DNA from: an uncultured Nitrososphaerales archaeon
GTDB taxonomy: Archaea > Thermoproteota > Nitrososphaeria > Nitrososphaerales > Gagatemarchaeaceae
Length of the DNA: 64,000 nucleotides
Assembly (NCBI GenBank): GCA_963706445.1
Contig: OY970160.1
Span: forward strand, 1,376,001 to 1,440,000
Direction of reading: 5' to 3'
Position 1 is the first letter of the stretch, and the number at the start of each line of letters is the position of its first letter. The position numbers and the translations under genes are program-made. Of the stretch, positions 779 to 18,241 are shown one piece after another. The notes beneath the pieces are model-generated. The model worked only from the letters and a program-made list of their open reading frames with translations, did not search any database and was not told the DNA's origin.

Positions 779-2830
779 TTGGGCGTCGCCCGTCTCACCA
801 AAGTCACGATCATCTCCCCTCGCAGCGAATATGAGGAAGTAGCCAAGAGTCTAGCCAAGTTCGAGTATTTCCACCCGGTGGAGGGAGCCCAGCAGAACTT
901 CGATCCCGGGGTCCAAGAACTCACAGTGAAGTCGGTCAGGCTCTTCGCGCAGGCGGACCAGGCTGTGAAGGATCTAGGCCTAAAGCTGATGCCGGGGCAG
1001 ATGGACATCGTCTTCGGAGGGGCCAAGGTCCCACGGAGCACCTTCGAGGCCTCCGACTGGGAGGACCTGCTCAACAAGGCGGACGTTCAACTTGAGCCCA
1101 TAGCGGAGGAGGTCAGATCCGAGAAGATCGTGCTACAGAAGGCCCAGAAGGACGAGTCGGACTCGGAAGCTTTGATGGGAGCACTCCAGGTAGTCTCAAA
1201 GTTCTCGTCAGACCTGACTGGACTTGTTGGGTTGGGGTACTTCAAGGCGGTCGCGTCGATTGTGGGGAATGAGAAGGTGGACGAGTTCAGGAAGTCGCTC
1301 CCAGACGCCATCTTCCATTCTAACCTCGTCTCCAAGGAGCAGACCCTAGTCCTAGTGGCTGTCCCGAAGTCGGAGGAAGCCAGGCTCGACAAGATGATGA
1401 AGCTCCTCGAGCTCAAACCGTTGACGATTCCACCCGACTTTCCTCAGAACCCGGCCGAGGCCTACAAGAAAGCGGAGAGCGACCATGAGGCGGCTTCGGC
1501 GGAGAGGAAGAAGGCCGAGGCTCAGATGGTGGAAGGCAAGACCAAGCACGGCACGACCCTGCTGGCGCTGAGAGAGCTTTCGGAAGTGGCTCGCAAGACC
1601 CTGGACGAAGCCAGGGTTTCAGGCGGGATGCAAAGGATGGCCATGATTTCCGGATACATCCCCGCAAAGAGAGAGCAGGAGATGAAGAGCGTCTTCGGGC
1701 GCTGGATTGTGAACACGGAAGAGGTGAATCGGGAATCAGAGGAAGACCATGTGCCGACGCTTATGGAGAACAGGAAGGGACTGGGACTTTATCAGCCTGT
1801 GACCCTGGAGCAGGGAATCCCAGCTGCCCACGAGGTCGACCCGACCCCGCTGGTCTCGTTTGTCTTCCCAGTCTTCTTCGGGATGATGTTCGGGGATGTG
1901 GGGCACGGGCTCATCCTGACGGCGTTCATGCTGTTTGTCAGACAGAGGTCGACGGGGAGCATGAGGCAATGGGCGAACATGTTCGTCGTCGCAGGGATCT
2001 CGGCGATAATCTTCGGAATAATATTCGGTGAGTTCTTCGAGCTGTCGTTTTCGAATTTCGTCCCCATACCTGCGGCAATAGAAATCATACACAGGGCCGC
2101 GGGCGCAGTGGACACGTTCAACTTCCTTCCCACCCCGTGGGCAGGCGTCAACCTGATTCTGATCGTGAGCTTCCTCATCGGAATCGCCCACCTGACCACG
2201 GCGCTCGGGCTCGACATCTACCAGACCTACAAAGAGCACAACAGAATCGAGCTCTGGCTCGAGAAGGTCCCGCTGTTCCTGATGTACGTTTCAGGAGTGG
2301 GCTATGGGCTCGCGTTCGTGGGAGTGGGTTTCAGCTTCAACGTGTTCTCGAGTTCTTCTCCCAACCCGCTCCTTGGAATTCCGAACAACCTACTGGGGGC
2401 GGCTTCGCTCGTGGTGCTGGTGCCCTCCATGGTCGTGCTGCTGGCTGGTAAGAGCGTAGCCATAGCCATGGGGAAGCTGAAGGAGGGTTCCGTGCTGGGC
2501 GCCCTTTCCAACGGAGGGCTCGAAGTCTTCGAAAGGATCTCTCAGTTCATGTCCAACACGATAAGCTACGTTAGGCTCGCGGTCATGCTGCTAGTGCACG
2601 CGGCGCTGCTTCTTATCATCAATCTCATGCAGCCGTGGGGGAACCCGGTGTACATCGCCCCCTGGATAGTGTTGAACCTCCTCATACTCGCCTTCGAGGC
2701 GTTCATTGTATACGTGCAAGACCTGAGGCTACACCTCTACGAGTTCTTCACGAAATTCTATACAGGCGAAGGCAAGCCCTTCAGGAAGATATTCCCTGAC
2801 AGGGCCAGGTTCAAAATCAACTGGCTCTAG
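779..2830 (+). CDS. atpI: A/V-type ATP synthase subunit I
   Basis: EVDPTP, FGMMFGDVGHG, SNTISYVRL and LRLHLYEFFTKFY motifs. Confidence 0.97.
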   Translation: MGVARLTKVTIISPRSEYEEVAKSLAKFEYFHPVEGAQQNFDPGVQELTVKSVRLFAQADQAVKDLGLKLMPGQMDIVFGGAKVPRSTFEASDWEDLLNKADVQLEPIAEEVRSEKIVLQKAQKDESDSEALMGALQVVSKFSSDLTGLVGLGYFKAVASIVGNEKVDEFRKSLPDAIFHSNLVSKEQTLVLVAVPKSEEARLDKMMKLLELKPLTIPPDFPQNPAEAYKKAESDHEAASAERKKAEAQMVEGKTKHGTTLLALRELSEVARKTLDEARVSGGMQRMAMISGYIPAKREQEMKSVFGRWIVNTEEVNRESEEDHVPTLMENRKGLGLYQPVTLEQGIPAAHEVDPTPLVSFVFPVFFGMMFGDVGHGLILTAFMLFVRQRSTGSMRQWANMFVVAGISAIIFGIIFGEFFELSFSNFVPIPAAIEIIHRAAGAVDTFNFLPTPWAGVNLILIVSFLIGIAHLTTALGLDIYQTYKEHNRIELWLEKVPLFLMYVSGVGYGLAFVGVGFSFNVFSSSSPNPLLGIPNNLLGAASLVVLVPSMVVLLAGKSVAIAMGKLKEGSVLGALSNGGLEVFERISQFMSNTISYVRLAVMLLVHAALLLIINLMQPWGNPVYIAPWIVLNLLILAFEAFIVYVQDLRLHLYEFFTKFYTGEGKPFRKIFPDRARFKINWL

Positions 2831-4284
2831 CCGACGAAGGTGCTCGCGGCGCTGGAGGCGAAGTTGATCACCGCCTGCGGGAACAGGCCTATCCCGATTA
2901 TCAGCCCGACCAGGACTGCGAAGACGACCACGAACCAGAAGGGCTCCTTGACCTTCTCCGTACTCTCCGGCTCGTCGATGTACATTCGTTTGATGAGCCA
3001 CGCGTAGTAGCCGAGGCTGAAGGCTGAATTCAGGATGGCCGCCAGCGCCAGCCATGCGTAGGGGCCGTTGGCCACTGACAGGACCAGCAGGAGCTTGCTC
3101 CAGAAGCCGGACAGCGGCGGGACCCCGGCCAGGCCGAGGAATGCCACAGTCAGGGTGAAAGCAGTGATTGGCATACGCTTCCCTAGGCCGTCGTAGGCGC
3201 GGAGGTCTGCCCTCTTGAGCACCAGCAGAACTGCGGCGGCGGCGAGGAATGCGGCCCCCTTCATGACCGCGTGGTTGATCACATGGAAGATTGACCCCGT
3301 GAGGCCGAGGGTCGCGGCCGCGGACCCCGGGGCGTTGGAATAAGCCACGAATCCGATCAGGATGTAACCTGCCTGGGCGATGCTGGAGTAGGCCAGAAGC
3401 CTCGTCATGCTCTTTTGGGTCAGGGCTGACACGTTGCCGACGGTCATCGTGATGACGGCCAGCACGGCGAACACGTTGGCCATGGAGAACACCGGGCTGC
3501 GGGTGACTGCGTACACGGTAGTGATGGCCAGGAGGACTCTGATGGCGGCGATGAAGCCAGCCTTCTTGGTGGCCGCGGCCAGCAGGGTGCTGATGGTGGT
3601 GGGAGCCCCCTCGTAGGCGTCAGGGATCCACATGTGGAACGGAACGATGGACATCTTGAAGCCGAACCCGGCCACGAAGAGGAGGGTCGCGACCCCGGCA
3701 AGGGCGGACGGGTGCGAGGTGAAGCCGGAAACCACGGCGGCGATGGAGGTGCTGCCGGTCAGGCCATAGGCCAGGCTGATCGCATAGAGGATGACGGCCG
3801 ATGACATGGCCCCGATTATCGCGTACTTCACCGACGCTTCGTTCGACCTGAGCTTCTTGTCGAAGCCGGCCAGGACGTAGGTGGGGAGACTCATCAGCTC
3901 CCAGGATACAAACAGCATCAGCAGGTCCTGCGAATAGGCGAGGAGGACCATGCCGAGGGCGGTGAAGCCGAGGAGGCTGTAGTAGACCGGGTTGCTCGTG
4001 CTCTTTTCGAAGTCGAATGACGCCACAGTTACAGCAAGGGTGATGCCGACGGTGACCAGGGCGAAGATCCCGCCGAGCTGGTCGGGGATAAGCAGGGATG
4101 CAGCCCACGGCACAGACGTCGGGTTGAGGGTGAAGAGACCGATGAAAAGCAGCGCCGCTGCGAGGACCAGGGCGAGGATGTACCCGGCGAGGTTGGGGTT
4201 CCTTCCCTTCGTCAGCTGCAGGAGAGGAAGGAGTAACGCGGTCCCCGCGAGTAGGACTACGGTCGTCGTTAGATAGTCAATCAT
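2827..4284 (-). CDS. nuoN: NADH-quinone oxidoreductase subunit N
   Basis: WELMSLPTY, FKMSIVPFHMWIPDAYEGAP, RLLAYSSIAQAGY. Confidence 0.95.
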   Translation of the reverse strand: MIDYLTTTVVLLAGTALLLPLLQLTKGRNPNLAGYILALVLAAALLFIGLFTLNPTSVPWAASLLIPDQLGGIFALVTVGITLAVTVASFDFEKSTSNPVYYSLLGFTALGMVLLAYSQDLLMLFVSWELMSLPTYVLAGFDKKLRSNEASVKYAIIGAMSSAVILYAISLAYGLTGSTSIAAVVSGFTSHPSALAGVATLLFVAGFGFKMSIVPFHMWIPDAYEGAPTTISTLLAAATKKAGFIAAIRVLLAITTVYAVTRSPVFSMANVFAVLAVITMTVGNVSALTQKSMTRLLAYSSIAQAGYILIGFVAYSNAPGSAAATLGLTGSIFHVINHAVMKGAAFLAAAAVLLVLKRADLRAYDGLGKRMPITAFTLTVAFLGLAGVPPLSGFWSKLLLVLSVANGPYAWLALAAILNSAFSLGYYAWLIKRMYIDEPESTEKVKEPFWFVVVFAVLVGLIIGIGLFPQAVINFASSAASTFVG

Positions 4285-4285
4285 C

Positions 4286-5776
4286 CTATGTCAACCCCTT
4301 CAGGAACTCCGCGACGGGGAGCGCCGGATTCAGTATGACGTAAGACGTCACGATGAGGATGACCAGCGGGATCAGGTAGACTGCGAAGGCTGCGACGTCA
4401 GACCACCCCATGTCGTGTGCCTCGTGTCCCGGCTCGGGGGAAGACAGGACTGTCCTCTTGATCATCCAGAGGAAGTAGCCTGCAGTTATGACGGGGACCA
4501 GTATCGAGATCGCAGTAATGGCGGACGCCGAGATGCCGGCCGCTATCACCAAGAACTCGGCCAGGAAGCTAGAGAAGGGAGGCAGGCCCATGGCCGCCGC
4601 AGAGGCCAGCACGAGAATGGCAGCAGTCCTGGGCATGGAGGTCCCAAGCCCCTTCAGCAGCGGGATCTCTCTGGTCCCGGCCTGATGTTGGATGTACCCT
4701 GTGAGCATGAAGAGGCTCCCGATGGCGAGGGCGTGGGTGAACATCTGGAATATGGCCCCTTGAATACCGAGGACGTTGCCTGAGATCAGTGTGGCATAGG
4801 CTCCGAACAGGACGAAGCCCATGTGGTTGATGCTGGTGAACGCTATCATCTTCTTCAGGTCCTTCTGGAGGACGGCCGCGACGGCTCCGTAGAACATCGA
4901 GAACAGCCCTAGTATGAGGAACACCCAGGCGTACTGGACCGAAGCACCCGGGAACAGCCCTATGCTTATCCTGAGGAATCCGTAGCCGCCCATCTTCAGC
5001 AGAACCCCGGCCAGAAGGACCGAGATCGGGGACGGAGCCTCGACGTGGGCGTCAGGGAGCCAGGTGTGGAACGGGACAAGCGGGAGCTTGACGGCGAACC
5101 CGATGAAGGACGCTGCGAGTGGGACGTATTCGAGAGCGGCAGGTATCTGATGGCTCAGCAGCATGGCCTGGATGGTGGGGATGTCGAAGGATGGCGTGGG
5201 CATCCCCATGTAGAAGTAGAGGAAGCCGAACAGCATTATCGTGCTCCCGGTGAAGGTGAAGATGATGAATTTCAGGGCCGCGTACTTTCTGCGCGGCCCC
5301 CCCCAAACCCCTATGAAGAAGAACATCGGGATGAGGACGACCTCCCAGAAGATGTAGAACAGGATGAGGTTGAGGGAGGTGAACACCCCCATTATCGCGC
5401 CCTCGAAGAGGAAAATGAGCGAGTAGTATTCGGCCTCGTGGTGGTCGATCAGCTTCCTCGACCCGAATATCACGAGGACAGTGAGCAGGGCCGAGACGAA
5501 TAGAAGCGGAGAGCTGAGTCCGTCGGTCCCCAAGAAGTAGTCGAGGCCGAAGCTGCTGATGCTGACCCAGCTGTCCTTCTCCTGGAACAGGTACTGGCCC
5601 GGAGCGGGAGGAGCCGCGTACACCTGCCAGAAAACGTAGCCGGCTATGAGGAGGACGAAGGCTGACAGGCCGAGGGAAGCGTAGATTCCCAGCTTCTTGT
5701 TGACCTTGGTCAGGGCGTAGACGAGAGGCGCGGCGAAGACAGGAAGTGCGATCAGCAGCGAAAGGACGTAGCTCAT
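4286..5776 (-). CDS. nuoM: NADH-quinone oxidoreductase subunit M (M1)
   Basis: FWEVVLIPMFF, VKLPLVPFHTWLPDAHVEAP, LLKMGGYG. Confidence 0.95.
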   Translation of the reverse strand: MSYVLSLLIALPVFAAPLVYALTKVNKKLGIYASLGLSAFVLLIAGYVFWQVYAAPPAPGQYLFQEKDSWVSISSFGLDYFLGTDGLSSPLLFVSALLTVLVIFGSRKLIDHHEAEYYSLIFLFEGAIMGVFTSLNLILFYIFWEVVLIPMFFFIGVWGGPRRKYAALKFIIFTFTGSTIMLFGFLYFYMGMPTPSFDIPTIQAMLLSHQIPAALEYVPLAASFIGFAVKLPLVPFHTWLPDAHVEAPSPISVLLAGVLLKMGGYGFLRISIGLFPGASVQYAWVFLILGLFSMFYGAVAAVLQKDLKKMIAFTSINHMGFVLFGAYATLISGNVLGIQGAIFQMFTHALAIGSLFMLTGYIQHQAGTREIPLLKGLGTSMPRTAAILVLASAAAMGLPPFSSFLAEFLVIAAGISASAITAISILVPVITAGYFLWMIKRTVLSSPEPGHEAHDMGWSDVAAFAVYLIPLVILIVTSYVILNPALPVAEFLKGLT

Positions 5777-7965
5777 GGGAGAGGCACCCCCACGCCCGCC
5801 CGCCAGATGGCGAGCAGGAACAGTACCACGAGCACCAGTATGCCGAAGGCGAAGACCTGGGCGTACTCCTCGACGATCCCGGTCTGGATCCTTCTGAAGG
5901 CCCTCGAGAGATCCTGACCTAACTCAGAGAACCCGTTGGCGGCCCCGTCCACGATGTTGACGTCGACCCAGTTGCCGATGGTGGAGGCATAGACCCCGAA
6001 CAAGGAGCCTGCGCTGTTGATTCTGAACAAGCCCCGGAAGTCGAACACGTCGCTCAGCCACCTGGACGCGGCGAGGGGGGCGTTAACGAACACCTTGTAG
6101 TAAATCGCGTTGATGTACCACCTCTTCTCAAGGAAGTTGTAAAGGCCGTGCATGAATCCGGTCTGGCCGACGAACCGCGTAGGTGGGACCCTCCGGATGA
6201 TGTAGATACCGTAGGCAGCCACGAAGCCGAGGACTACGATGGCCAGGGTGAGCCCGGCGGGGGCCCAATTGACCGCGCCTGACGGCGGTGCCAGAGAAGC
6301 CGTGGGGAAGAGTGCTACGATGTAGTTCTGTGCTGCGGCCTGGAGCGAAGCGTCGATGTTCAGCGCGGGGATGCCGAGTCCAGCGAAGGCGGTCACCCCG
6401 ATGATGACGGTTAGCCCCGCGAGAATCGTGTAGGGGACCCACATTATCGGGCTAGGCTCATGGACGTGATGGCCCTGGCCCTCGACCTCGGCGAGCCTCT
6501 TGCTGCTGTCTCCGTAGAATACCATCCCCAGCATCCTGAACGAGTAGAAGGCGGTCATCCCGGCGGTAAGGGCTCCGACTATGAAGAGGCCGTACTGCCC
6601 TGCCCCCCAGGCGGCGCCAAGGACTGCGTCTTTACTCCAGAAGCCGCTGAAGGGAGGGATCCCCGAGAGGGAGGCGACGGCGATGAGCACCGCCGCGAAT
6701 GTCAGTTTCATCTTGTTTCTCATCCCACCCATGTCGCTGATGTACTTCGAGTCGGCCGCGTGGATGAGCGCGCCCGCGGCGAGGAACAGGCACGCCTTGA
6801 AGATGGCGTGGCTCATCAGCTGGTAGAGAGCGGCAGAGAGGCCGTCGGAGAAGTTGACCGACAGGCCCGCGACCCCCACTGCGAGCATCATGTAGCCGAT
6901 CTGCGACACCGTCGAATAAGCGAGGATCTTCTTGAGCTCAAAGCCGACCAGCGCCTGGCTCGCGGCCAGCACGGCGGTGAAGGCCCCGATCCAAGCTACC
7001 GTCAGGAAGAACGGCTGCACCGTGGCAATGCCGAAGCCTGCGGTACCGATGGCGATGAAGTAGAAGATAGGGGCGATTCTCGCGACAAGGACCACCCCGG
7101 CCTTGACCATGGTCGCGGCGTGGATCAGAGCAGAGACAGGGGCGGGGCCGGCCATGGCGTCTGGGAGCCACTCGTGCAGGGGGAACTGGGCGGACTTTCC
7201 TACCGCTCCACCGAAAATCAGGAGCGCGACCGGGACAAGAAGGCCATTGCTGTACAGGTTCTGGAACCATGACCCTTTGTCGGCGGCGAGCTGATAGTAG
7301 TTGAACGTCCCCGAGTAGAAGAAGAGTATCAGGATCCCTGCCAGCATGGCGACATCCCCTATCCTCGTCATGACGAAGGCCTTCATCCCCGCCTGTGAAG
7401 GGGAGTATGCCTGGTCCTCGCCGAGGACCTTCTCTCCCGGAGTTCCGACCCAGTCCTTGGTCTCGTCTTTCCAGTAATGCCCGATCAGCGCGTAGCTGCA
7501 GAGTCCCACCATCTCCCATCCGATGAATAGCGAAAGGAGGTTGTCGGAGAGGACGATGAGCTGCATGCTCCCGATGAACAGGGAGATGAAGAAGAAGTAA
7601 CGGTTGTGGCCCCCGTCGTCCTTCATGTACTCCAGACTGTAGAAGACGATGAGGAAGCTGACCCAGGCCACGACGTTTGCGAGTATGGCCGTGTATGAAT
7701 CGGTGAGCACGCCCATTGTGATATTCAGGCCCGAGATCCAGGGGACGCTGACGGTCAGAGGTCCGACGTTGGAGATGGTGATGGGCTGGCCCTCCAGGAC
7801 CGGGAGGAGCATGATCAGTGCGAATCCAGCGGAGAGCAAGGCGAACGCTGCGGCTGCGTAATCGCCCATCCTGCCGAGCTTCCTAAGCGCGATTGTGACG
7901 AGGGCGCCAGCGTAGGGGAGTATGAAGATCAGCCAGATGAAGTAGGACGGGATGGCGAAGCTCAT
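5773..7965 (-). CDS. nuoL: NADH-quinone oxidoreductase subunit L
   Basis: GWEMVGLCSYALIG, GKSAQFPLHEWLPDAMAGPAPVSALIHAATMV, C-terminal lateral helix ending RIQTG. Confidence 0.97.
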   Translation of the reverse strand: MSFAIPSYFIWLIFILPYAGALVTIALRKLGRMGDYAAAAFALLSAGFALIMLLPVLEGQPITISNVGPLTVSVPWISGLNITMGVLTDSYTAILANVVAWVSFLIVFYSLEYMKDDGGHNRYFFFISLFIGSMQLIVLSDNLLSLFIGWEMVGLCSYALIGHYWKDETKDWVGTPGEKVLGEDQAYSPSQAGMKAFVMTRIGDVAMLAGILILFFYSGTFNYYQLAADKGSWFQNLYSNGLLVPVALLIFGGAVGKSAQFPLHEWLPDAMAGPAPVSALIHAATMVKAGVVLVARIAPIFYFIAIGTAGFGIATVQPFFLTVAWIGAFTAVLAASQALVGFELKKILAYSTVSQIGYMMLAVGVAGLSVNFSDGLSAALYQLMSHAIFKACLFLAAGALIHAADSKYISDMGGMRNKMKLTFAAVLIAVASLSGIPPFSGFWSKDAVLGAAWGAGQYGLFIVGALTAGMTAFYSFRMLGMVFYGDSSKRLAEVEGQGHHVHEPSPIMWVPYTILAGLTVIIGVTAFAGLGIPALNIDASLQAAAQNYIVALFPTASLAPPSGAVNWAPAGLTLAIVVLGFVAAYGIYIIRRVPPTRFVGQTGFMHGLYNFLEKRWYINAIYYKVFVNAPLAASRWLSDVFDFRGLFRINSAGSLFGVYASTIGNWVDVNIVDGAANGFSELGQDLSRAFRRIQTGIVEEYAQVFAFGILVLVVLFLLAIWRAGVGVPLP

Positions 7966-7966
7966 C

Positions 7967-9475
7967 TCAGCCTAGCACTCCTGTACTGAATATGCCGGCG
8001 AAGCCTGTAAGGAATTTCGTCACGATGTCTGGGTAGATGCCGATGAGTATCGAAGCCACGACAATGGCCAGGAGCGGGAGGGTCATCGTCAGGGGTGGGT
8101 CTTTGGCCGCGTCGAGCCCTGGAGCCTGAGGCCCGAAGAAGATCTTCTTGATGGGCCAGAACGTGTATGCGACTGTCAGCAGGGTCGCTATTATGCCAAG
8201 CAGGGCGACGACCATGTAGAGGGATGAGCCCTGGGCGCCCTGAGAGAAGATCCCGGCGAACATGATCCACTCCGCCTGGAACCCGCTGGTTGGAGGGACC
8301 GCGGAGAGAATCAGCGCACCGAGGACGAAGAGCGCGGCCGTGAACGGCATTTTGGCCGCGAGGCCTCCCATTTTCTTGACGTCCCTCAGCCCCGTCTGCG
8401 TTAGGAGAATACCGGCTACGGAGAACAGCACGAACTTGCCGAGGATGTGGCTCCCGAAGTAGAACACCCCTCCCACCGCGCCGAGGGCAGAGGCGCTCGC
8501 CAGACCTAGGATGGAGTAGGCGTTCTGGCTCATGGTCGACCAGGCGAAGATGTACTTCACGTCGTTCTGGGCGAGGGTGACAGCCCCCCCGTAGAACATG
8601 GTCAGGACAGCCCAGGCCATGAGTGGGAGGCTGAAGGAATGGAACACTGTCGGCATCTCGAAGAACAGGAGCCGGGCGATTACGTACGCACCCATCCCCG
8701 ACACTATCGCCATCGTGGGAGCGAACGAAGTCGGGGGCTCGGCCTCGGTGATGGGGAGCCACATATGGAGACCGAAGATGCCCATCTTCAGGAGCCATCC
8801 CACGAGAATCAGGGCCGCTATCCAATAGGCCAGGGAGCTGGACTGGGCGGCGGTCAGTGAAGAAATGTCGAAGCTCCCCGTGGCGGAATATGCCAGCGCT
8901 ATACCGGCGAGGAAGACGAAGGCGCCTAGCTGGTTCCAGATGATGTAGATTATCCCGACCCTTTCTTTCTGGACGTAGCCGAACAGACTGATTATGATGA
9001 AGGTGGGGATCAGGACGAGCTCCAGGAACAGATAGAGCTCGATCAGGTTCGTCGAGAGGACGATCCCGACCAGCCCCGAGGCAACGAGGAGGAAGCTCAT
9101 GTAGTAGACCCCGTACCTTGCGGGTCGGTCTTCCCCGTAGAGGCTCTTGATCCTGTTCTGCATGTAGGGCATGGAGTAGATTGCCGTGGCGGCCAGAACA
9201 AGGTTGACCAGAATAGCGACGGGGAACGACAGGCCGTCAGCGAGGAACCCGAAGGTCAACCCAGCCGTCGGAGCCCAAGTATAGGACTCGGTGAGAGGGG
9301 AGCCTCCTGAAAAGAGCTGGGACCAACCTCCTCCAATCAGGACAAACGTTGTGAACAGGAGGGCGACGAACGCGATCCAGCCGACGTGCCTCCCCAACTT
9401 CGGGGCGGCGAGGTAGCAAGCGGCCGCAGCGGCTAGCGGTATCACTACCGATTGAAGTAGAAGATATTGTGACAC
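7967..9475 (-). CDS. nuoM: second NuoM-like antiporter subunit (M2)
   Basis: DGLSFP, ELVLIP, LKMGIFGLHMWLP, PPTSGFQAEW; between nuoK and nuoL; GTG start. Confidence 0.85.
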   Translation of the reverse strand: MSQYLLLQSVVIPLAAAAACYLAAPKLGRHVGWIAFVALLFTTFVLIGGGWSQLFSGGSPLTESYTWAPTAGLTFGFLADGLSFPVAILVNLVLAATAIYSMPYMQNRIKSLYGEDRPARYGVYYMSFLLVASGLVGIVLSTNLIELYLFLELVLIPTFIIISLFGYVQKERVGIIYIIWNQLGAFVFLAGIALAYSATGSFDISSLTAAQSSSLAYWIAALILVGWLLKMGIFGLHMWLPITEAEPPTSFAPTMAIVSGMGAYVIARLLFFEMPTVFHSFSLPLMAWAVLTMFYGGAVTLAQNDVKYIFAWSTMSQNAYSILGLASASALGAVGGVFYFGSHILGKFVLFSVAGILLTQTGLRDVKKMGGLAAKMPFTAALFVLGALILSAVPPTSGFQAEWIMFAGIFSQGAQGSSLYMVVALLGIIATLLTVAYTFWPIKKIFFGPQAPGLDAAKDPPLTMTLPLLAIVVASILIGIYPDIVTKFLTGFAGIFSTGVLG

Positions 9476-9531: not shown

Positions 9532-9861
9532 TTATCCCTCCATGGACTTCAGTTCGCTGACGTCCACATCCTGGTGGAGCCGGTAGGCGACCACCACTAT
9601 CGCAAGTATCACTGCAGCCTCGGCCGCCGCCAGAGCTATCGAGAACAGGACGAAGGTCTGCCCCAGGGCGTTGGGGGCAACCGCGGCGCTTCCTTCGAAG
9701 GGAAGGTATTGACCGAAGGCGATGAAATTCAGGTTGGCAGCGTTGATCATCAGCTCGACGGCGAAGAGCAGCCGGAGGGCGTTCTTCTTGGTCACCAGCC
9801 CGTAGACGCCGATGCCGAAGAGCATGGCCGAGACTACGACGAAATCGCTCAGGTCATTCAT
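9532..9861 (-). CDS. nuoK: NADH-quinone oxidoreductase subunit K
   Basis: ELMINAANLNF, AAAEAAVILA. Confidence 0.95.
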   Translation of the reverse strand: MNDLSDFVVVSAMLFGIGVYGLVTKKNALRLLFAVELMINAANLNFIAFGQYLPFEGSAAVAPNALGQTFVLFSIALAAAEAAVILAIVVVAYRLHQDVDVSELKSMEG

Positions 9862-10364
9862 TGACCCTTGTCCTCCTTGTCAGCCCTCGAAAGTGTGAGA
9901 GCCCCTACCACAGACGCGGCTAGCACCAGGGCAAGCACCAGAAGAATCGGGGCGTAGCCCGTTGAAATGAGCTGACCTATATCGACGAACGTCGCGGTGT
10001 TGACGATGTTGGTGAATTGGGCCAGGTTGGTGTCGACCACCGCAAAGATGAGGGCCACAGCGATGGCAGCGCCCGTCATGATCCCGGCCAGCTTGGTTAG
10101 CGATGTAGGGGGGAGCTCCTTCGACCACTTCTCCTCGCGGACGAGCATGACGGTGAAGAGGATTAGGACCGCTACCGCTCCGATGTAGACGGCGATCTGG
10201 AAGACGGCGACGTAGGGGGCGTTGAGAAGGAAGAACAGGGTCGCGACCCCGAAGAGTGAGCCGGCGAGCCCGATGGCACCGTAGATGATCTCCTTCGCTT
10301 CGAGGGCGACGATGGCGCTCCCGAGGGTGAGGACGGCCATCCCGATGAAGACGATGTCAGCCGT
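9858..10364 (-). CDS. nuoJ: NADH-quinone oxidoreductase subunit J (first ATG at 10340; in-frame ACG at 10364 may be the true start)
   Basis: LNAPYVAVFQIAVYIGAVAVLILFTVML motif; lies between nuoI and nuoK. Confidence 0.9.
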   Translation of the reverse strand, partial: TADIVFIGMAVLTLGSAIVALEAKEIIYGAIGLAGSLFGVATLFFLLNAPYVAVFQIAVYIGAVAVLILFTVMLVREEKWSKELPPTSLTKLAGIMTGAAIAVALIFAVVDTNLAQFTNIVNTATFVDIGQLISTGYAPILLVLALVLAASVVGALTLSRADKEDKGQ

Positions 10365-11976
10365 ATCTGACCTCTCCCTTCTCGGTGTCGAACTCGACCT
10401 TGTACTTCTTCCCCTCCAACTTCGGAGGGACCGCGAGCATGTCAGGGGTGTACTTCAGCCCCATCTTGTCGTAGGCGGACAGCTCATAGTCGTTGGTCAT
10501 GAACAGAGCGTCGAAGGGACAAGCATCCACACACAGGCCGCAAAAAACGCAATTATGGACAGAAATATTTGCGGCAATATAGCTATTATCTCCCTCAACC
10601 TCAAAGTTTTGCACAAAATAATCCTTCACCTCTCGGATGTCTATCTTGACGACTGGCGAGACAATCATTCCATCCGTCAGATGCACGTAGCTGTGGGAGA
10701 CTTCGTTGTTCTTTGCGGGGACATCAACCAGTTGCCCCATGGCTTCAACATATGGAGTGTGTACTGTCACGGAATAGCAGAGTTTTCGAGCTTTCTGTCT
10801 TTCTGTACTAATCGAGGAGAGTATACCGATACGCCCCAGCATGTAGTGCATCTGCAAAGCCAAGTCCTTCGAAGTCGTTCGAGTTGTGAAGAAATTCGAG
10901 TGCATCTTGGTCTTGTATGCGTAGTGTTTGTTGGAGTAATGCCCGTCGCCCCAGAACTCTCCGCGCACTATGTCCTTGATGTTCTCGACTGGGAGCAGAA
11001 CCATTGACCAAGGAAGCTTCTTTTCGTCGCAATGACGGCCGAACTGGGAGAAGAACGATGCGACTCGGACCGAGTCTACGCAAAGCTTCAACCCCAGGGA
11101 ATCTGGATCAGGTTTGACCGAGACCTCTGCGCCGAAAACCTTGGCGACGGCCTGCGTAATGTCCTGCTTGAGATCCACTTCGTTCTTGTGGATATCGAAG
11201 GAGACCCTATATCGGTCTGAGGAGCCTTCGGCGAGATAGTATCCAATCAGGCGCATGAGTTCCGCAGTGACAGGCATAGAGACCAACTCCGTCGTGAACG
11301 AACCGCCTTTTCCAGCTGGATGGTAGAGTTCGTAGGTGTACTGGATCACTTCCGCTGGGAGTTCTTCGCTGATTATCGGCCTGGTAAGGTATGTTCGGTA
11401 CTTGATTTCATTCGCAAAGAGCCACGAAGTACCCTTCTCACTATACACGAGGATTGGGTGGTCCTCTGTGGTGGTCAGGGGCTCGAAGCTGCCGAGGGTC
11501 CTAAAGGTGAAGAGCTTCCCAGTGTAGCTCCGACTAAAGAGCCTCGACACCCTTCTGAACTTCCCTGTGTGAGTGAGAACTCTGTCCCCAACCCGGATTT
11601 CTGAGATGGGTTTGACTCCGTCGATGGTGATGATGGGTGTGTCCGGAGGCACGCACCTCCCATAGTCAACCGCGGGCCAGATGTCCTTTTTGTTCTGGGG
11701 CCGTCCCTTGGTGACCTTCTGCATGTCAATGGCGACAGCGACCCCGTCGCATGCGATGGCACAGAGCTGGCACCCTGTGCACTTCTCAAAATACAATATG
11801 TGCCGCCCCTTGAACCCGGCGAGACCCACCCCCTGCTTGGCGTCATACTGGTACCCGGGCCCTTCGAGGTCGAGCTTCTGCTCCGGGTAGCGGAGGGTCA
11901 TCCTCGGGTGGAAGAAATGCCTGACCCCGGACCAGGTGGCGACGAAGACGCCTTTGATGTATGACCAGGTGTTCAT
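10357..11976 (-). CDS. nuoI: NADH-quinone oxidoreductase subunit I precursor containing an intein (predicted spliced product 171 aa)
   Basis: TLRYPEQK, FKGRH, CTGCQLCAIAC; second motif DYGR|CVFCGLCVDACP interrupted by 368 aa. Confidence 0.95.
   Translation of the reverse strand: MNTWSYIKGVFVATWSGVRHFFHPRMTLRYPEQKLDLEGPGYQYDAKQGVGLAGFKGRHILYFEKCTGCQLCAIACDGVAVAIDMQKVTKGRPQNKKDIWPAVDYGRCVPPDTPIITIDGVKPISEIRVGDRVLTHTGKFRRVSRLFSRSYTGKLFTFRTLGSFEPLTTTEDHPILVYSEKGTSWLFANEIKYRTYLTRPIISEELPAEVIQYTYELYHPAGKGGSFTTELVSMPVTAELMRLIGYYLAEGSSDRYRVSFDIHKNEVDLKQDITQAVAKVFGAEVSVKPDPDSLGLKLCVDSVRVASFFSQFGRHCDEKKLPWSMVLLPVENIKDIVRGEFWGDGHYSNKHYAYKTKMHSNFFTTRTTSKDLALQMHYMLGRIGILSSISTERQKARKLCYSVTVHTPYVEAMGQLVDVPAKNNEVSHSYVHLTDGMIVSPVVKIDIREVKDYFVQNFEVEGDNSYIAANISVHNCVFCGLCVDACPFDALFMTNDYELSAYDKMGLKYTPDMLAVPPKLEGKKYKVEFDTEKGEVRYG
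10552..11655 (-). mobile_element. intein with LAGLIDADG homing endonuclease
   Basis: Block A CVPPDTPI, block B TTEDHP, LAGLIDADG-like LIGYYLAEGS and IVRGEFWGDG, block H TTSKDLA...LGRIGI, block F VQNFEVEGDNSY, terminal VHN followed by Cys; visibly AT-richer than the flanks. Confidence 0.95.
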
Positions 11977-11977
11977 C

Positions 11978-13150
11978 TTACTTCACTATCCCCGCTGAGA
12001 TGATGACCATGGTGATGAATATGTTCGCAAAGGCGAGGGCTAGGAGCTTGACCCACCCGGCCCTGAGGAGCATGTCGATCCTGAGCCGGGGCATTATCGA
12101 CCTCGGCAGCATCATCAGAATCATGACGACTGTGACCTTGGCGATGAACCAGACTTCTGGAGGGACAGGCCCGGGCCCGAGCCAGCCGCCAAGAAAGAAC
12201 GTCGTGAAGAGCCCCGCCATGATGTACATGCGGGTGAAGTTAGCGAGCTGAAACGTCCCGAAGAGCATGCTCGAGTACTCTGTCTGCCAGCCGGCGACGA
12301 GCTCGCTGTCAGCTTCGGGGATGTCGAAGGGGATCCGCTCAAGCTCGGCCAGGGCTCCAATGTAGAAGACAATGGCTCCAAGAGGCTGAAGGATGATGTA
12401 CCAAACACCATTCTGGGCCGTGACGATGCCCATCAGGTTGAGAGAACCGGACAACAAGACTGCTCCGACAAGCGAGAGGATCATAGGGATCTCATAGGCG
12501 ACGAGCTGGTGCAGGGCCCTGAGCCCTCCCAAGAACGGGTACTTGCTGTTGCTCGCCCACCCCGCTAGGAGCACGACAAGGGGGGTGAAGCCAAGGATGG
12601 CGAAGATGAGGACCGCCCCGACCGAGGGGTTCGCTATGTAGGTCGTCGGCGACAGAGGGACGAGAGCGATAAGGGCCCCGGCCACCGCCATGAGCGCAAA
12701 AGGTACGGCCAGGAAGGTCGCCCTGTCGACCCCGTCCGGGATGATTATCTCTTTGAAAGCGAGCTTGAAGAAGTCGGCGACGTTCTGGGCGATTCCCTCC
12801 ACTCTCCCTGCGTTCATGGGCCCGGTCCTGAGCTGGATCTTGGCTGTCATCTTCCGCTCGACCCACCCCATGAAGATGGTGCCGTACACCGCCACAAAGG
12901 TGAACCCGGGGAAGGTGGTCAGTGCGAACAGGGTCTTGTAAGGCTCCGTAGAAATGAGGTTGAGCTGGAACTGCAGGAACTGGTCGGGCTTCACCGTCAT
13001 CAGGGCGAAGATGTCGGGGGAGAAGTGAAACTCGGCGTATAGTATGTAATAAATCGGGACTAGAAGGACGACAGAGACAAGGGCGACCCAGAATACGTCT
13101 ATCAGAATCCGTTTCACGAAGTCTTCGAAGGTCGTGATGGGCTTCGACAT
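11978..13150 (-). CDS. nuoH: NADH-quinone oxidoreductase subunit H
   Basis: ERKMTAKIQLRTGP, GWASNSKYPFLGGLR, RIPFDIPEADSELVAG. Confidence 0.97.
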   Translation of the reverse strand: MSKPITTFEDFVKRILIDVFWVALVSVVLLVPIYYILYAEFHFSPDIFALMTVKPDQFLQFQLNLISTEPYKTLFALTTFPGFTFVAVYGTIFMGWVERKMTAKIQLRTGPMNAGRVEGIAQNVADFFKLAFKEIIIPDGVDRATFLAVPFALMAVAGALIALVPLSPTTYIANPSVGAVLIFAILGFTPLVVLLAGWASNSKYPFLGGLRALHQLVAYEIPMILSLVGAVLLSGSLNLMGIVTAQNGVWYIILQPLGAIVFYIGALAELERIPFDIPEADSELVAGWQTEYSSMLFGTFQLANFTRMYIMAGLFTTFFLGGWLGPGPVPPEVWFIAKVTVVMILMMLPRSIMPRLRIDMLLRAGWVKLLALAFANIFITMVIISAGIVK

Positions 13151-15812: not shown

Positions 15813-17535
15813 TCAGGGACCCTTCGGTTCCGGAGAAGGACCTGGCAGGTCCTGCCTCACCTTCCCCGGCCACCAGTTGTACTTCTGCGCGATTGCCATT
15901 AGCGAAGGCACGAAGAGGAAGATCACGACCCCAACGTCCACCATTAAGGCTAAGGCTGCGCTCACGCCAATTTCAGCGAGCAGTCCAATCCCGCTGGCAG
16001 CCAAGGAACCGAAGACGCTCGACAGTATCAATCCCAGACCAAGGAGGGTGATCCAAGTCTTGTTCATGGCGGTCTTGATTGCGTCCAAGTCCGATATGCC
16101 GCGCATCGCCTCCTCTCTTATCCTGGTGACTAGGAATATGTCGTAGTCTACGCCCACTCCGAGCATAGTGACGACGACGAAGAGCGGGGCAAGGCTGACC
16201 ACGGGGGTTTGAAGCACGTAGTAGAACAGGATGGAGAGCAACCCGAGTGCGAAGGAGACGCTGCAGAGAATCGTGAAAATCAAACGAACCGGTGTGAAGA
16301 TCGAACGCAGTTGGGCGAATAGTATGAAGAAGACCCCCACGGCGAGAATCAACACGACGAAGGGGAGAACCCCGTTGATGAGATCAAGAGTGTCGACGGC
16401 AGATTGAGTGGACCCACCGAAGTAGACAGTCGTCCCCAGAGGGAGCGGGATGGCCCCTACCGCGGCCTCGATACTTCCCAAGTCGGTGATCGCGGCTGAG
16501 CTTTGCGAAGGCTGAGAGAGGCCGATGGTGAAAAGGGCGGTCCTGTTATCTTTGCCAACCATCGACAACATTCCACCAAGATATTGGGCCTGAACGGGTG
16601 GCGGCAGGGATGCCAAGCCTGTGTAATTGAAAGAAGCACCGTAGGGCCTTGTAGGGCTGCTGATTGTTTCGACACCCGGAGAGGCCGAAATTACTGACGA
16701 GATTGTTTCAATCTGTCTGAGTTGCGTTTGGTTGAACTGGTAGCGGCTGTTTACGATGGGATATGGAAACGTCACCACGACCAAGGTTGGGGCGACCGTC
16801 GAACCGCCGAAGTTGTTAGTGATGACGGTGAGCCCTTGGTTGCTCTCGAAGTTTGGAATCAGTTTCGAAATGTCAATCCCGCTCGGCGTCTGATAGGCGA
16901 CGTAGAAGGATCCCAGGGCCAGCAGGCTGATTACGACTGAAATGGCCACTTTATGCCGCAGGATTTTGTCTGGGACACTCTCCAGTTTTCTCTTCGCTAC
17001 TGAAGGAGGACCCTCGGCGTTCTTGTCTTGTCGGGGCCAGAACAGCCTCTTTCCCACTGTGAGCTGAACCGAGGGCAGTAGAGTGAGGGATGCAGCCAAC
17101 AGGATGGCGACGCCAATCGCTATTGCCTCTCCCACATCGCCGAAGAATGGCACCTTGGTGATTGCAAGGACGATGTAGGCAACGACCACCGTCAACCCTG
17201 CGGTGAGGACCGCCTGGCCCGCCCACCTCACGGATATGCCCACGCTCTCCTGGATGGTCTTGCCTTTGGACAACTCTTCCTTAGTCCTCCTAAGCTGAAG
17301 TACTCCGTAGTCCACAGCGAGACCCAGCATTGTCAGGATCATCAAGAACGGGACGGCGAAGTTGATCTGACCATGCTGAACGCTGACAAACAAGCCATAG
17401 ACTGCGCCTAGCGAGATTCCAATGGCGACCCCTCCTATCAATAGTGGAACAAGAGCTGCGACAGGCGAAAGGAACAAGAGGCCAGCAACGAGCAATGAGA
17501 CCGCGAGGCCAGGAACTATGCTAGTGTCAAGGGGG
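15813..17535 (-). pseudogene. MMPL/RND-family transporter, N-terminally truncated and fused in frame to an amidohydrolase fragment
   Basis: GLAVDYGVLQLRRTKEE and GVGVDYDIFLVTRIREE repeats; the first TM and first extracytoplasmic domain are absent. Confidence 0.7.
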
Positions 17536-18241
17536 GTCCCGAATAGGATCTTCTCGGCCCCGCCGGCGAAGTAGACTGCTTCGCAGATCTTTCTGGCGAG
17601 CCACCCAGCGAACTTCTGTCGGTAGGCACCCCCTCCTGTGGTGAGACCTGACATGTCGGCGTAGACCTTCGGGTGCTTGTAGATCAGTTCGGCCGCGTCC
17701 TCGAACCATGGATTGCCGAAATGGCAGAGGACGATGGTGAGTTCCGCCCTCTTGTTCGCCAGGCGGTCCAGGGTCAGGGGGTGCGAGCGGACCAAGTCTC
17801 CGCCTTTGGTCGCGGTGTCACCGGTGTGGAAAAGGACCGGGATTCCCTTCTCTTCCGCGAAGTCGTAGGCACCGCTGAACACCGGGTCGTCTGCTGAAGC
17901 GTCGACGTATCCCAGCCTTACCTTGAATGCCTTCACCTCCCCGATGTTTTTGTCAGCGAGTTTCACAGCGGCAGCCACGGCTTTCTTGGTCGGTTCGACA
18001 GTGATGACCGGAGACAGCAGTCCTCGGCTCCTTCGGCAGAGCCTGATGATTTCCTCATTGGGGAGGGGAGTCCCGTCGTTCATGGGTGGGCTGAGCAGGA
18101 GCCCCGTTCGACCTGGTGCTTCCGCATCGAGTCGACAAGTTCGTCCAGAGTGTAGGTCAGGCCGTTCAACTTTGCGAACCCCCGGAGCGCGTCGTCTCGT
18201 CTCTCTGAGAGATGGACGTGCGCGTCGATTATCTTCTGCAC
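17536..18241 (-). pseudogene. amidohydrolase_2-family gene, frameshifted near 18102-18105 and truncated at ILFGT
   Basis: GTG at 18241 gives MQKIIDAHVH...; continuation (LLLSPPMNDG, VLFHTG, LCHFG, YADMSG, ILFGT) is in another frame; terminal Asp motif missing. Confidence 0.75.

Follow-up and report, generated by a model that had tools for sequence, protein, structure and literature searches.

The interrupted nuoI gene and its genome setting

The gene nuoI occupies positions 10357..11976 of the window (the whole stretch of 64,000 nucleotides that was analysed) and encodes a 539-aa precursor in a single frame without a stop, with NCBIfam matches to NuoI flanking an insert on both sides. All features described here lie on the minus strand. 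The host is a soil/peat archaeon of the Nitrososphaerota, and the gene is part of an operon of the order nuoH-I-J-K-M-L-M-N, in which domain and family matches identified nuoH (11978..13150), nuoJ (9858..10340), nuoK (9532..9861), an extra nuoM-like antiporter subunit gene (7967..9475), nuoL (5773..7965), nuoM (4286..5776) and nuoN (2827..4284). The four antiporter-like subunits encoded between 2827 and 9475 (M-L-M-N) represent the doubled-NuoM type of complex I, and an aIF1/SUI1 gene precedes nuoH. Thaumarchaeotal complex I lacks NuoEFG and has a doubled NuoM ('2M'). The system described here shares with this type the gene order, a separate nuoABCD cluster, located about 32 kb from the nuoI operon and with an uninterrupted nuoB, and the lack of a match to NuoF in this genome (95% complete), but differs from it in that nuoI is interrupted. 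The genome also contains two heme-copper oxidase frames of about 800 aa each, which agree with the coxAC fusion known from Group I.1c / Gagatemarchaeaceae (PMC10640624) and suggest that the host belongs to this family.

The best model for the host protein was TIGR01971, yet the score of an empty allele (102.6 bits) stayed below the curated cut-off of 113.05 bits. Its identity as NuoI is based on matches to NuoI/Nqo9 in the PDB, on two CxxCxxCxxxC motifs and on the slot between nuoH and nuoJ; its homologues are labelled Nitrososphaerota. The only other NuoI-like gene in the genome (35% identity) is part of a hydrogenase-like cluster, and the interrupted gene is therefore the sole complex I nuoI found. 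A second complex-I-like cluster (L128, G000 C1:1171000-1179700) encodes, besides a large subunit of the NiFe hydrogenase type (PF00346, PF00374), a 2x4Fe-4S subunit of its own. Within nuoI, no Rfam family was detected, and promoter and terminator signals did not exceed those of shuffled sequences. Elsewhere in the window, a 756-aa frame (15813-18083, minus strand) combines an amidohydrolase-like start with an MMPL/RND domain.

The N-extein (aa 1-107; 11656..11976) ends in AVDYGR, is 83-88% identical to empty alleles and carries, in the precursor translation, the first 4Fe-4S motif C66-x2-C69-x2-C72-x3-C76 (11749..11781), which ends in C-D rather than C-P. It is followed by the insert at what we call site a, an intein of 368 aa (aa 108-475; 10552..11655) that runs from Cys1 to a terminal His-Asn, and by a C-extein of 64 aa plus stop (10357..10551) that begins with Cys+1. 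The two junctions read AVDYGR|CVPPDTP and ISVHN|CVFCGLCVDACP, where CVFCGLCVDACP (10516..10551) is the second 4Fe-4S motif and Cys+1 its first cysteine, as seen both in the precursor translation and in the match to the second motif of NuoI/NDUFS8 (PMC9783039). Excision yields a NuoI of 171 aa with its cysteine motifs at 66-76 and 108-118. Frame, insert and product lengths, the two motifs of the product and the place of Cys+1 had all been given in a preliminary description of this DNA, and each of them was confirmed. The intein has a GC content of 51% and a GC3 of 0.64, compared to 0.82 for the exteins and 0.79-0.85 for the remaining genes of the operon.

Cys1, the TxxH motif, the penultimate His, the terminal Asn and Cys+1, as well as two LAGLIDADG motifs, are all present, as that description had stated. 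Across 118 full-size site-a inteins, Cys1 (11653..11655), Thr63 and His66 of block B (T63-E-D-H66; 11458..11469), His367 and Asn368 (10552..10557) are invariant. The LAGLIDADG homing endonuclease domain (about intein aa 128-312; 10720..11274) matched PF14528 above its cut-off and resembles I-DmoI and PI-SceI in fold; it contains the motifs LIGYYLAEGS (11221..11250) and IVRGEFWGDG (10942..10971), with the acids E143 (conserved in 111 of the 118 inteins) and D237 (conserved in 116), respectively, and a block D Lys212 (11020..11022), invariant in all 118 and probably catalytic. An in-frame insert, a colinear host after its removal and empty alleles in relatives agree with a class 1 intein. The block F Asp (F4) that is usual, though not universal, in this class is replaced: N350 and N357 stand where many class 1 inteins have Asp and His, and this Asn/Asn pair is a fixed variant of the clan (Asn350 in 118/118). 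Among Pfam models, LAGLIDADG_3 scored above its cut-off on the insert, and Hint_2 and Intein_splicing scored below theirs; TIGR01445 was above cut-off in a profile search of the genome, and the NCBIfam models of NuoI were broken in two by the insert. The AlphaFold model of the intein (pLDDT 85.9, with the last 11 residues of low confidence) had inteins as its top structural matches, in line with a HINT fold, and aligned with TliVMA, PhoVMA, PI-PkoII and PI-SceI over the whole length (best E 3e-18; TM 0.67 for TliVMA).

Judging from the conserved residues, Cys1 would make the N-S shift, Cys+1 would accept the thioester and Asn368 would cyclise, so that the joined 171-aa NuoI would regain both ferredoxin motifs and could load two 4Fe-4S clusters. 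In the 2x[4Fe-4S] fold, each cluster draws ligands from both motifs. Since the intein parts these motifs, mature NuoI should need splicing, as the preliminary description had soundly reasoned.

The genome is an assembly from environmental DNA, and an insert of this kind could accordingly be an assembly chimera or a dead remnant. However, the same 4620 bases occur with zero mismatches in a separate JGI metagenome assembly (3300010379), the identical two junctions are found in more than 100 homologous clusters and in three families of the class or phylum, and the other NuoI-like gene lies in a hydrogenase-like cluster. A dead remnant is at odds with the open frame and with dN/dS values far below 1, which amounted to 0.03-0.05 for the splicing domain and 0.06 for the endonuclease in comparison with the two closest homologues and indicate purifying selection on both parts. 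We thus regard an artefact or remnant as highly improbable. The conserved residues, the fold match, the empty alleles and the recurrent junctions bear out the original assignment of a homing-endonuclease intein in NuoI.

Two neighbouring insertion sites in relatives

The 55 genomes of the genus gave, after dropping identical loci, 42 distinct complete nuoI alleles. Of these, 16 (about 38%) are empty. The empty relatives encode a NuoI of 171 aa in which DYGRCVFCGLCVDACP is uninterrupted, and they include sister lineages of filled ones with 92-95% DNA identity. Site a alone is filled in nine alleles. Another 12 carry a different intein at a site b alone (CVFCGL|CVDACP; 10533..10534), which was recognised by comparison with relatives, is empty in this genome and lies six codons (18 nt) downstream of site a. 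The remaining five combine a full intein at site b with mini-a, a nuclease-less copy of the site-a intein. The site-b intein has 368-372 aa, is 32-36% identical to intein a and mostly ends in Thr-Ser-Asn. It begins with C-[VIL]-[DE], which resembles the CVD of the extein and through which 8 further bases of the site-a target may remain intact; such starts are common in inteins generally.

Full doubles were found in metagenomes as 21 clusters of 829-924 aa, with only CVFCG/AL(F) between the inteins, and most of them retain both acid pairs; full doubles arose many times. In double alleles, a single cluster motif has to be assembled from three separate pieces, one of them an internal extein of 6 residues. 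Mutual exclusion of the two inteins was rejected, as doubles were observed 5 times versus 5.7 expected from the allele frequencies, in addition to the 21 full-double clusters. Likewise, a restriction of mini-a to neighbours of b was rejected, as P0221 carries mini-a alone. In addition, both sites are filled in a second order of the class and, rarely, in other lineages of the phylum; for the largest family of the order, 180 genomes were searched without a match at E 1e-40. Intein-bearing NuoI proteins of 540-910 aa bear the annotation '4Fe-4S binding protein' or 'hypothetical protein', and complex I can therefore be scored incomplete in these genomes. Identical or near-identical nuoI loci occur across species representatives (G031/G067/G069, G024/G012, G015/G026, G023/G026), and G026 and G075 have two nuoI genes each; these cases are probably shared or mis-binned contigs.

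Probable mobility and inheritance of the inteins

In several pairs of alleles, the inteins have diverged much less than their hosts. The inteins of G023 and G031 are 95% identical with a dS of 0.10-0.15, whereas their exteins are 84% identical with a dS of 0.73; G029, the sister of G023 (92.5%), is empty, and the extein relatives of G031 bear inteins that are just 56-67% alike. The same holds for the site-b inteins of G014 and G033 (dS 0.01-0.03 versus 0.30 for the exteins) and for the inteins of G144 and G125 (0.27-0.32 versus 1.05). The extein tree, based on 492 columns, rejected a single clade for the site-a carriers (AU 1e-9), for G023 plus G031 (1e-4) and for the carriers of mini-a plus b (1e-5), with the tested groups chosen after the tree was seen, and with G125, G142 and G144 excluded because of mis-trimmed N-exteins. 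The minis of the mini-a plus b carriers nevertheless cluster with support of 99/95, and their site-b partners with 86/84. Since both elements cluster though the clade of their carriers is rejected, the simplest reading appears to be that mini-a and b moved as one block, mini-a being co-converted with b over 18 nt.

In filled alleles, GC3 drops to 0.58-0.70 in extein codons up to about ten away from the site, compared to 0.85 elsewhere, whereas empty alleles have no such dip (0.82 near the site versus 0.81); the nominal p of 3e-4 refers to alleles that are kin and not independent. A dip beside the site is the signal that would be expected of a co-conversion tract. In this genome's copy, GC3 is 0.58 near the site versus 0.85.

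Patchy spread, tree conflict and signs of co-conversion are thus seen across the genus, and we consider it very probable that the element is a class 1 homing intein that spreads selfishly into conserved Cys codons and is, or recently was, mobile. According to the comparative evidence, the target of its LAGLIDADG domain would be the DYGR|CVF codons of intein-free nuoI, where the cut would be repaired on the template of a filled allele, with the intein and a few flanking codons copied in. The second intein (about 34% identical) uses the third Cys, 18 nt downstream; the two occur alone or together, and the endonuclease-less copy of the first intein appears to ride along with the second. Site a would be favoured because the invariant Cys ligand serves both as +1 nucleophile and as a DNA target immune to drift or imprecise loss, and the position is thereby explained without a regulatory role.

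Compared to its two closest homologues, the intein of this genome has a dS similar to that of the extein and of nuoH (about 0.7-1.1). The arrival of this copy was therefore not recent, and it has been inherited vertically for a while. Vertical inheritance together with a nuclease under purifying selection points to homing cycles within the lineage, or to another role. Phages in GenBank yielded just distant inteins with about 25% identity, and no viral vector was thus identified.

Known inteins and a possible redox dependence of splicing

The closest known inteins include the archaeal LAGLIDADG elements with solved structures TliVMA (7qsu, 7qss), PhoVMA (7qst), PI-PkoII (2cw7) and PI-PfuI (1dq3), as well as yeast PI-SceI (PMC8966425). 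The NuoI intein shares with the TliVMA/PI-SceI group the HINT fold with accessory strands, the two-motif LAGLIDADG domain and the Cys...Asn termini, but is only 11-16% identical to them, has Asn/Asn in block F and resides in NuoI instead of an ATPase or polymerase. As in haloarchaeal MCM-a/MCM-d (PMC10643990), two independent LAGLIDADG inteins per gene occur in empty, single and double alleles with tree conflicts; unlike there, only 18 nt, encoding a 6-residue internal extein, separate the two sites in NuoI, and the two target sites therefore probably overlap. Co-homing of the haloarchaeal MCM inteins was found to be inefficient and without phylogenetic support (PMC10643990), in contrast to mini-a and b of NuoI, which appear to have moved together. 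With the mycobacterial SufB intein, the element shares a Cys+1 in Fe-S biology, and related inteins reside at EG|C of SufB in this genus; SufB, however, is a cluster-assembly scaffold and NuoI an electron-transfer subunit.

In the MoaA intein of P. abyssi, a Cys of the N-extein bonds Cys1 and forms a redox trap (PMC10663303). Both this and the NuoI element are Cys1 inteins that interrupt an oxygen-sensitive protein at a Cys that binds an Fe-S cluster, and the hosts differ in fold (radical SAM for MoaA, ferredoxin-type for NuoI). Unlike in MoaA, no N-extein Cys able to bond Cys1 is adjacent to site a, whereas site b has one at -3, making a CxxC with Cys1, but is filled in relatives only. The preliminary description had proposed an O2/redox/metal switch at this junction. 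As a domesticated switch, the intein would stay unspliced while O2, oxidants or metals act on its Cys1 and on the thiol-rich C-extein, and would thus gate complex I assembly. The redox-gated splicing of MoaA (PMC10663303) is a precedent for such a switch; the four Cys after the junction, the Cys-3 of site b, the stand-alone mini-intein allele and the two heme-copper oxidases, which show that the host meets O2, also speak for it. Inteins of the genus also sit at Fe-S or Mo ligand Cys of NuoB (two sites), the beta subunit of 2-oxoacid:ferredoxin oxidoreductase, SufB, a radical SAM protein and a Mo enzyme. However, at the filled site a the N-extein ends in DYGR and its nearest Cys is 32 residues upstream, which leaves none within 30 residues of the junction; 16 of 42 alleles are empty, some of them sisters of filled ones; most copies retain the nuclease; and the element behaves as recently mobile. 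Furthermore, of the Cys inside the intein, C192 and C209 show no conservation and C293 belongs to the nuclease domain, inteins also occupy proteins without a redox role (Hel308, GHMP kinase, endonuclease IV, PurD-like), and the same clan precedes Cys in many unrelated proteins. A selected redox function is disfavoured because sister alleles are empty and the nuclease is actively kept, and we consider the proposed switch unlikely and not supported at this locus. It seems weak at site a, where Cys-3 is missing, and the geometry of site b would suit it better.

Alternatively, a selfish intein could be incidentally sensitive, with Cys1 and Cys+1 slowed in vitro by oxidants or metals and no selected role. 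This would be compatible with a selfish homing intein, and we rate it just short of an even chance. The junction is rich in thiols, and oxidants or Zn affect the majority of the Cys-dependent inteins tested so far, judging by reports such as PMC7360933 and PMC8557812; as mere chemistry, such a sensitivity of Cys1/Cys+1 is likely.

All four complex I intein sites of the lineage, two in NuoI and two in NuoB, are at Fe-S ligand cysteines. The NuoB site HLETAC|CSVE, between tandem Cys, is filled in about 17 of 55 genomes and MGA|C(A/S)ITGG in 4 distinct genomes, with G005 having both; nuoB is filled in about a third of the relatives and empty here (loci L087-L103, L117-L120). A reading that unites the four sites as redox-conditional maturation of complex I, through the CxxC of site b and thiol-rich junctions and with endonuclease-less copies persisting by co-homing or domestication, appears improbable to us: the sites and double alleles are observed, and the redox gating is speculative. 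The wider clan is large: at E 1e-30 it comprises 703 representatives, and of the 240 junctions that were parsed, 179 place a Cys at +1. Their hosts are unrelated and include SufB, ferredoxin domains, glycosyltransferase-like and probable phage proteins (recognised from flanking motifs).

The selfish homing intein favoured here is of an ordinary kind. Novel features are its residence in NuoI, the presence of two sites only 18 nt from each other within a single cluster motif, alleles filled at both, and an indication of co-homing. No paper linking an intein with NuoI, NuoB or complex I was found in the searchable literature, with InBase and most subscription journals outside the search, in agreement with the preliminary description, to which no described intein in a complex I core subunit was known; the main text of a 2015 intein-host survey makes no mention of NADH, ferredoxin or Fe-S. 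The range of intein hosts is hereby extended to a core subunit of respiratory electron transfer. The range of alleles (empty, a, b, a+b, mini-a+b, mini-a) constitutes a natural experiment on whether inteins at adjacent sites obstruct or transport one another and on whether those at Fe-S ligands are sensors or mere parasites. A control is built in, as the two sites of one motif differ in Cys-3, which is absent at a and present at b.

The genus is unusually rich in inteins outside replication proteins. This genome has three further ones: in a molybdopterin oxidoreductase (PF00174; L129:420-2219, minus strand; G000 C1:1708916-1710718; RSFH|CVTRWS), with the rare terminus Thr-Gln-Asp and a Cys+1 that is likely the Mo ligand; in a Hel308/Ski2-like helicase (G000 C1:281568-284828, minus strand; SPTA|SGKT), ending in Gly-Asn; and in a PurD-like ligase (C1:512668-514992, minus strand; TGEMG|T; 350 aa), also ending in Gly-Asn. 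In the beta subunit of 2-oxoacid:ferredoxin oxidoreductase, an intein lies in WCPG|CGDFG with a Cys at -3 (L034, L035, L132), and it also occurs in one genome of another family of the order. Related inteins (L036-L053, L121-L126) were found in SufB (two sites, including EG|C), endonuclease IV, geranylgeranyl reductase, a radical SAM protein (CSWACAY|CQN), GHMP kinase and a HATPase-like protein. Further clan members (P0199, P0237, P0297, P0247, P0167) reside in a small ferredoxin, an ABCE1/Rli1-like Fe-S domain, a thioredoxin reductase-like CxxC and site b of a distant NuoI-like protein.
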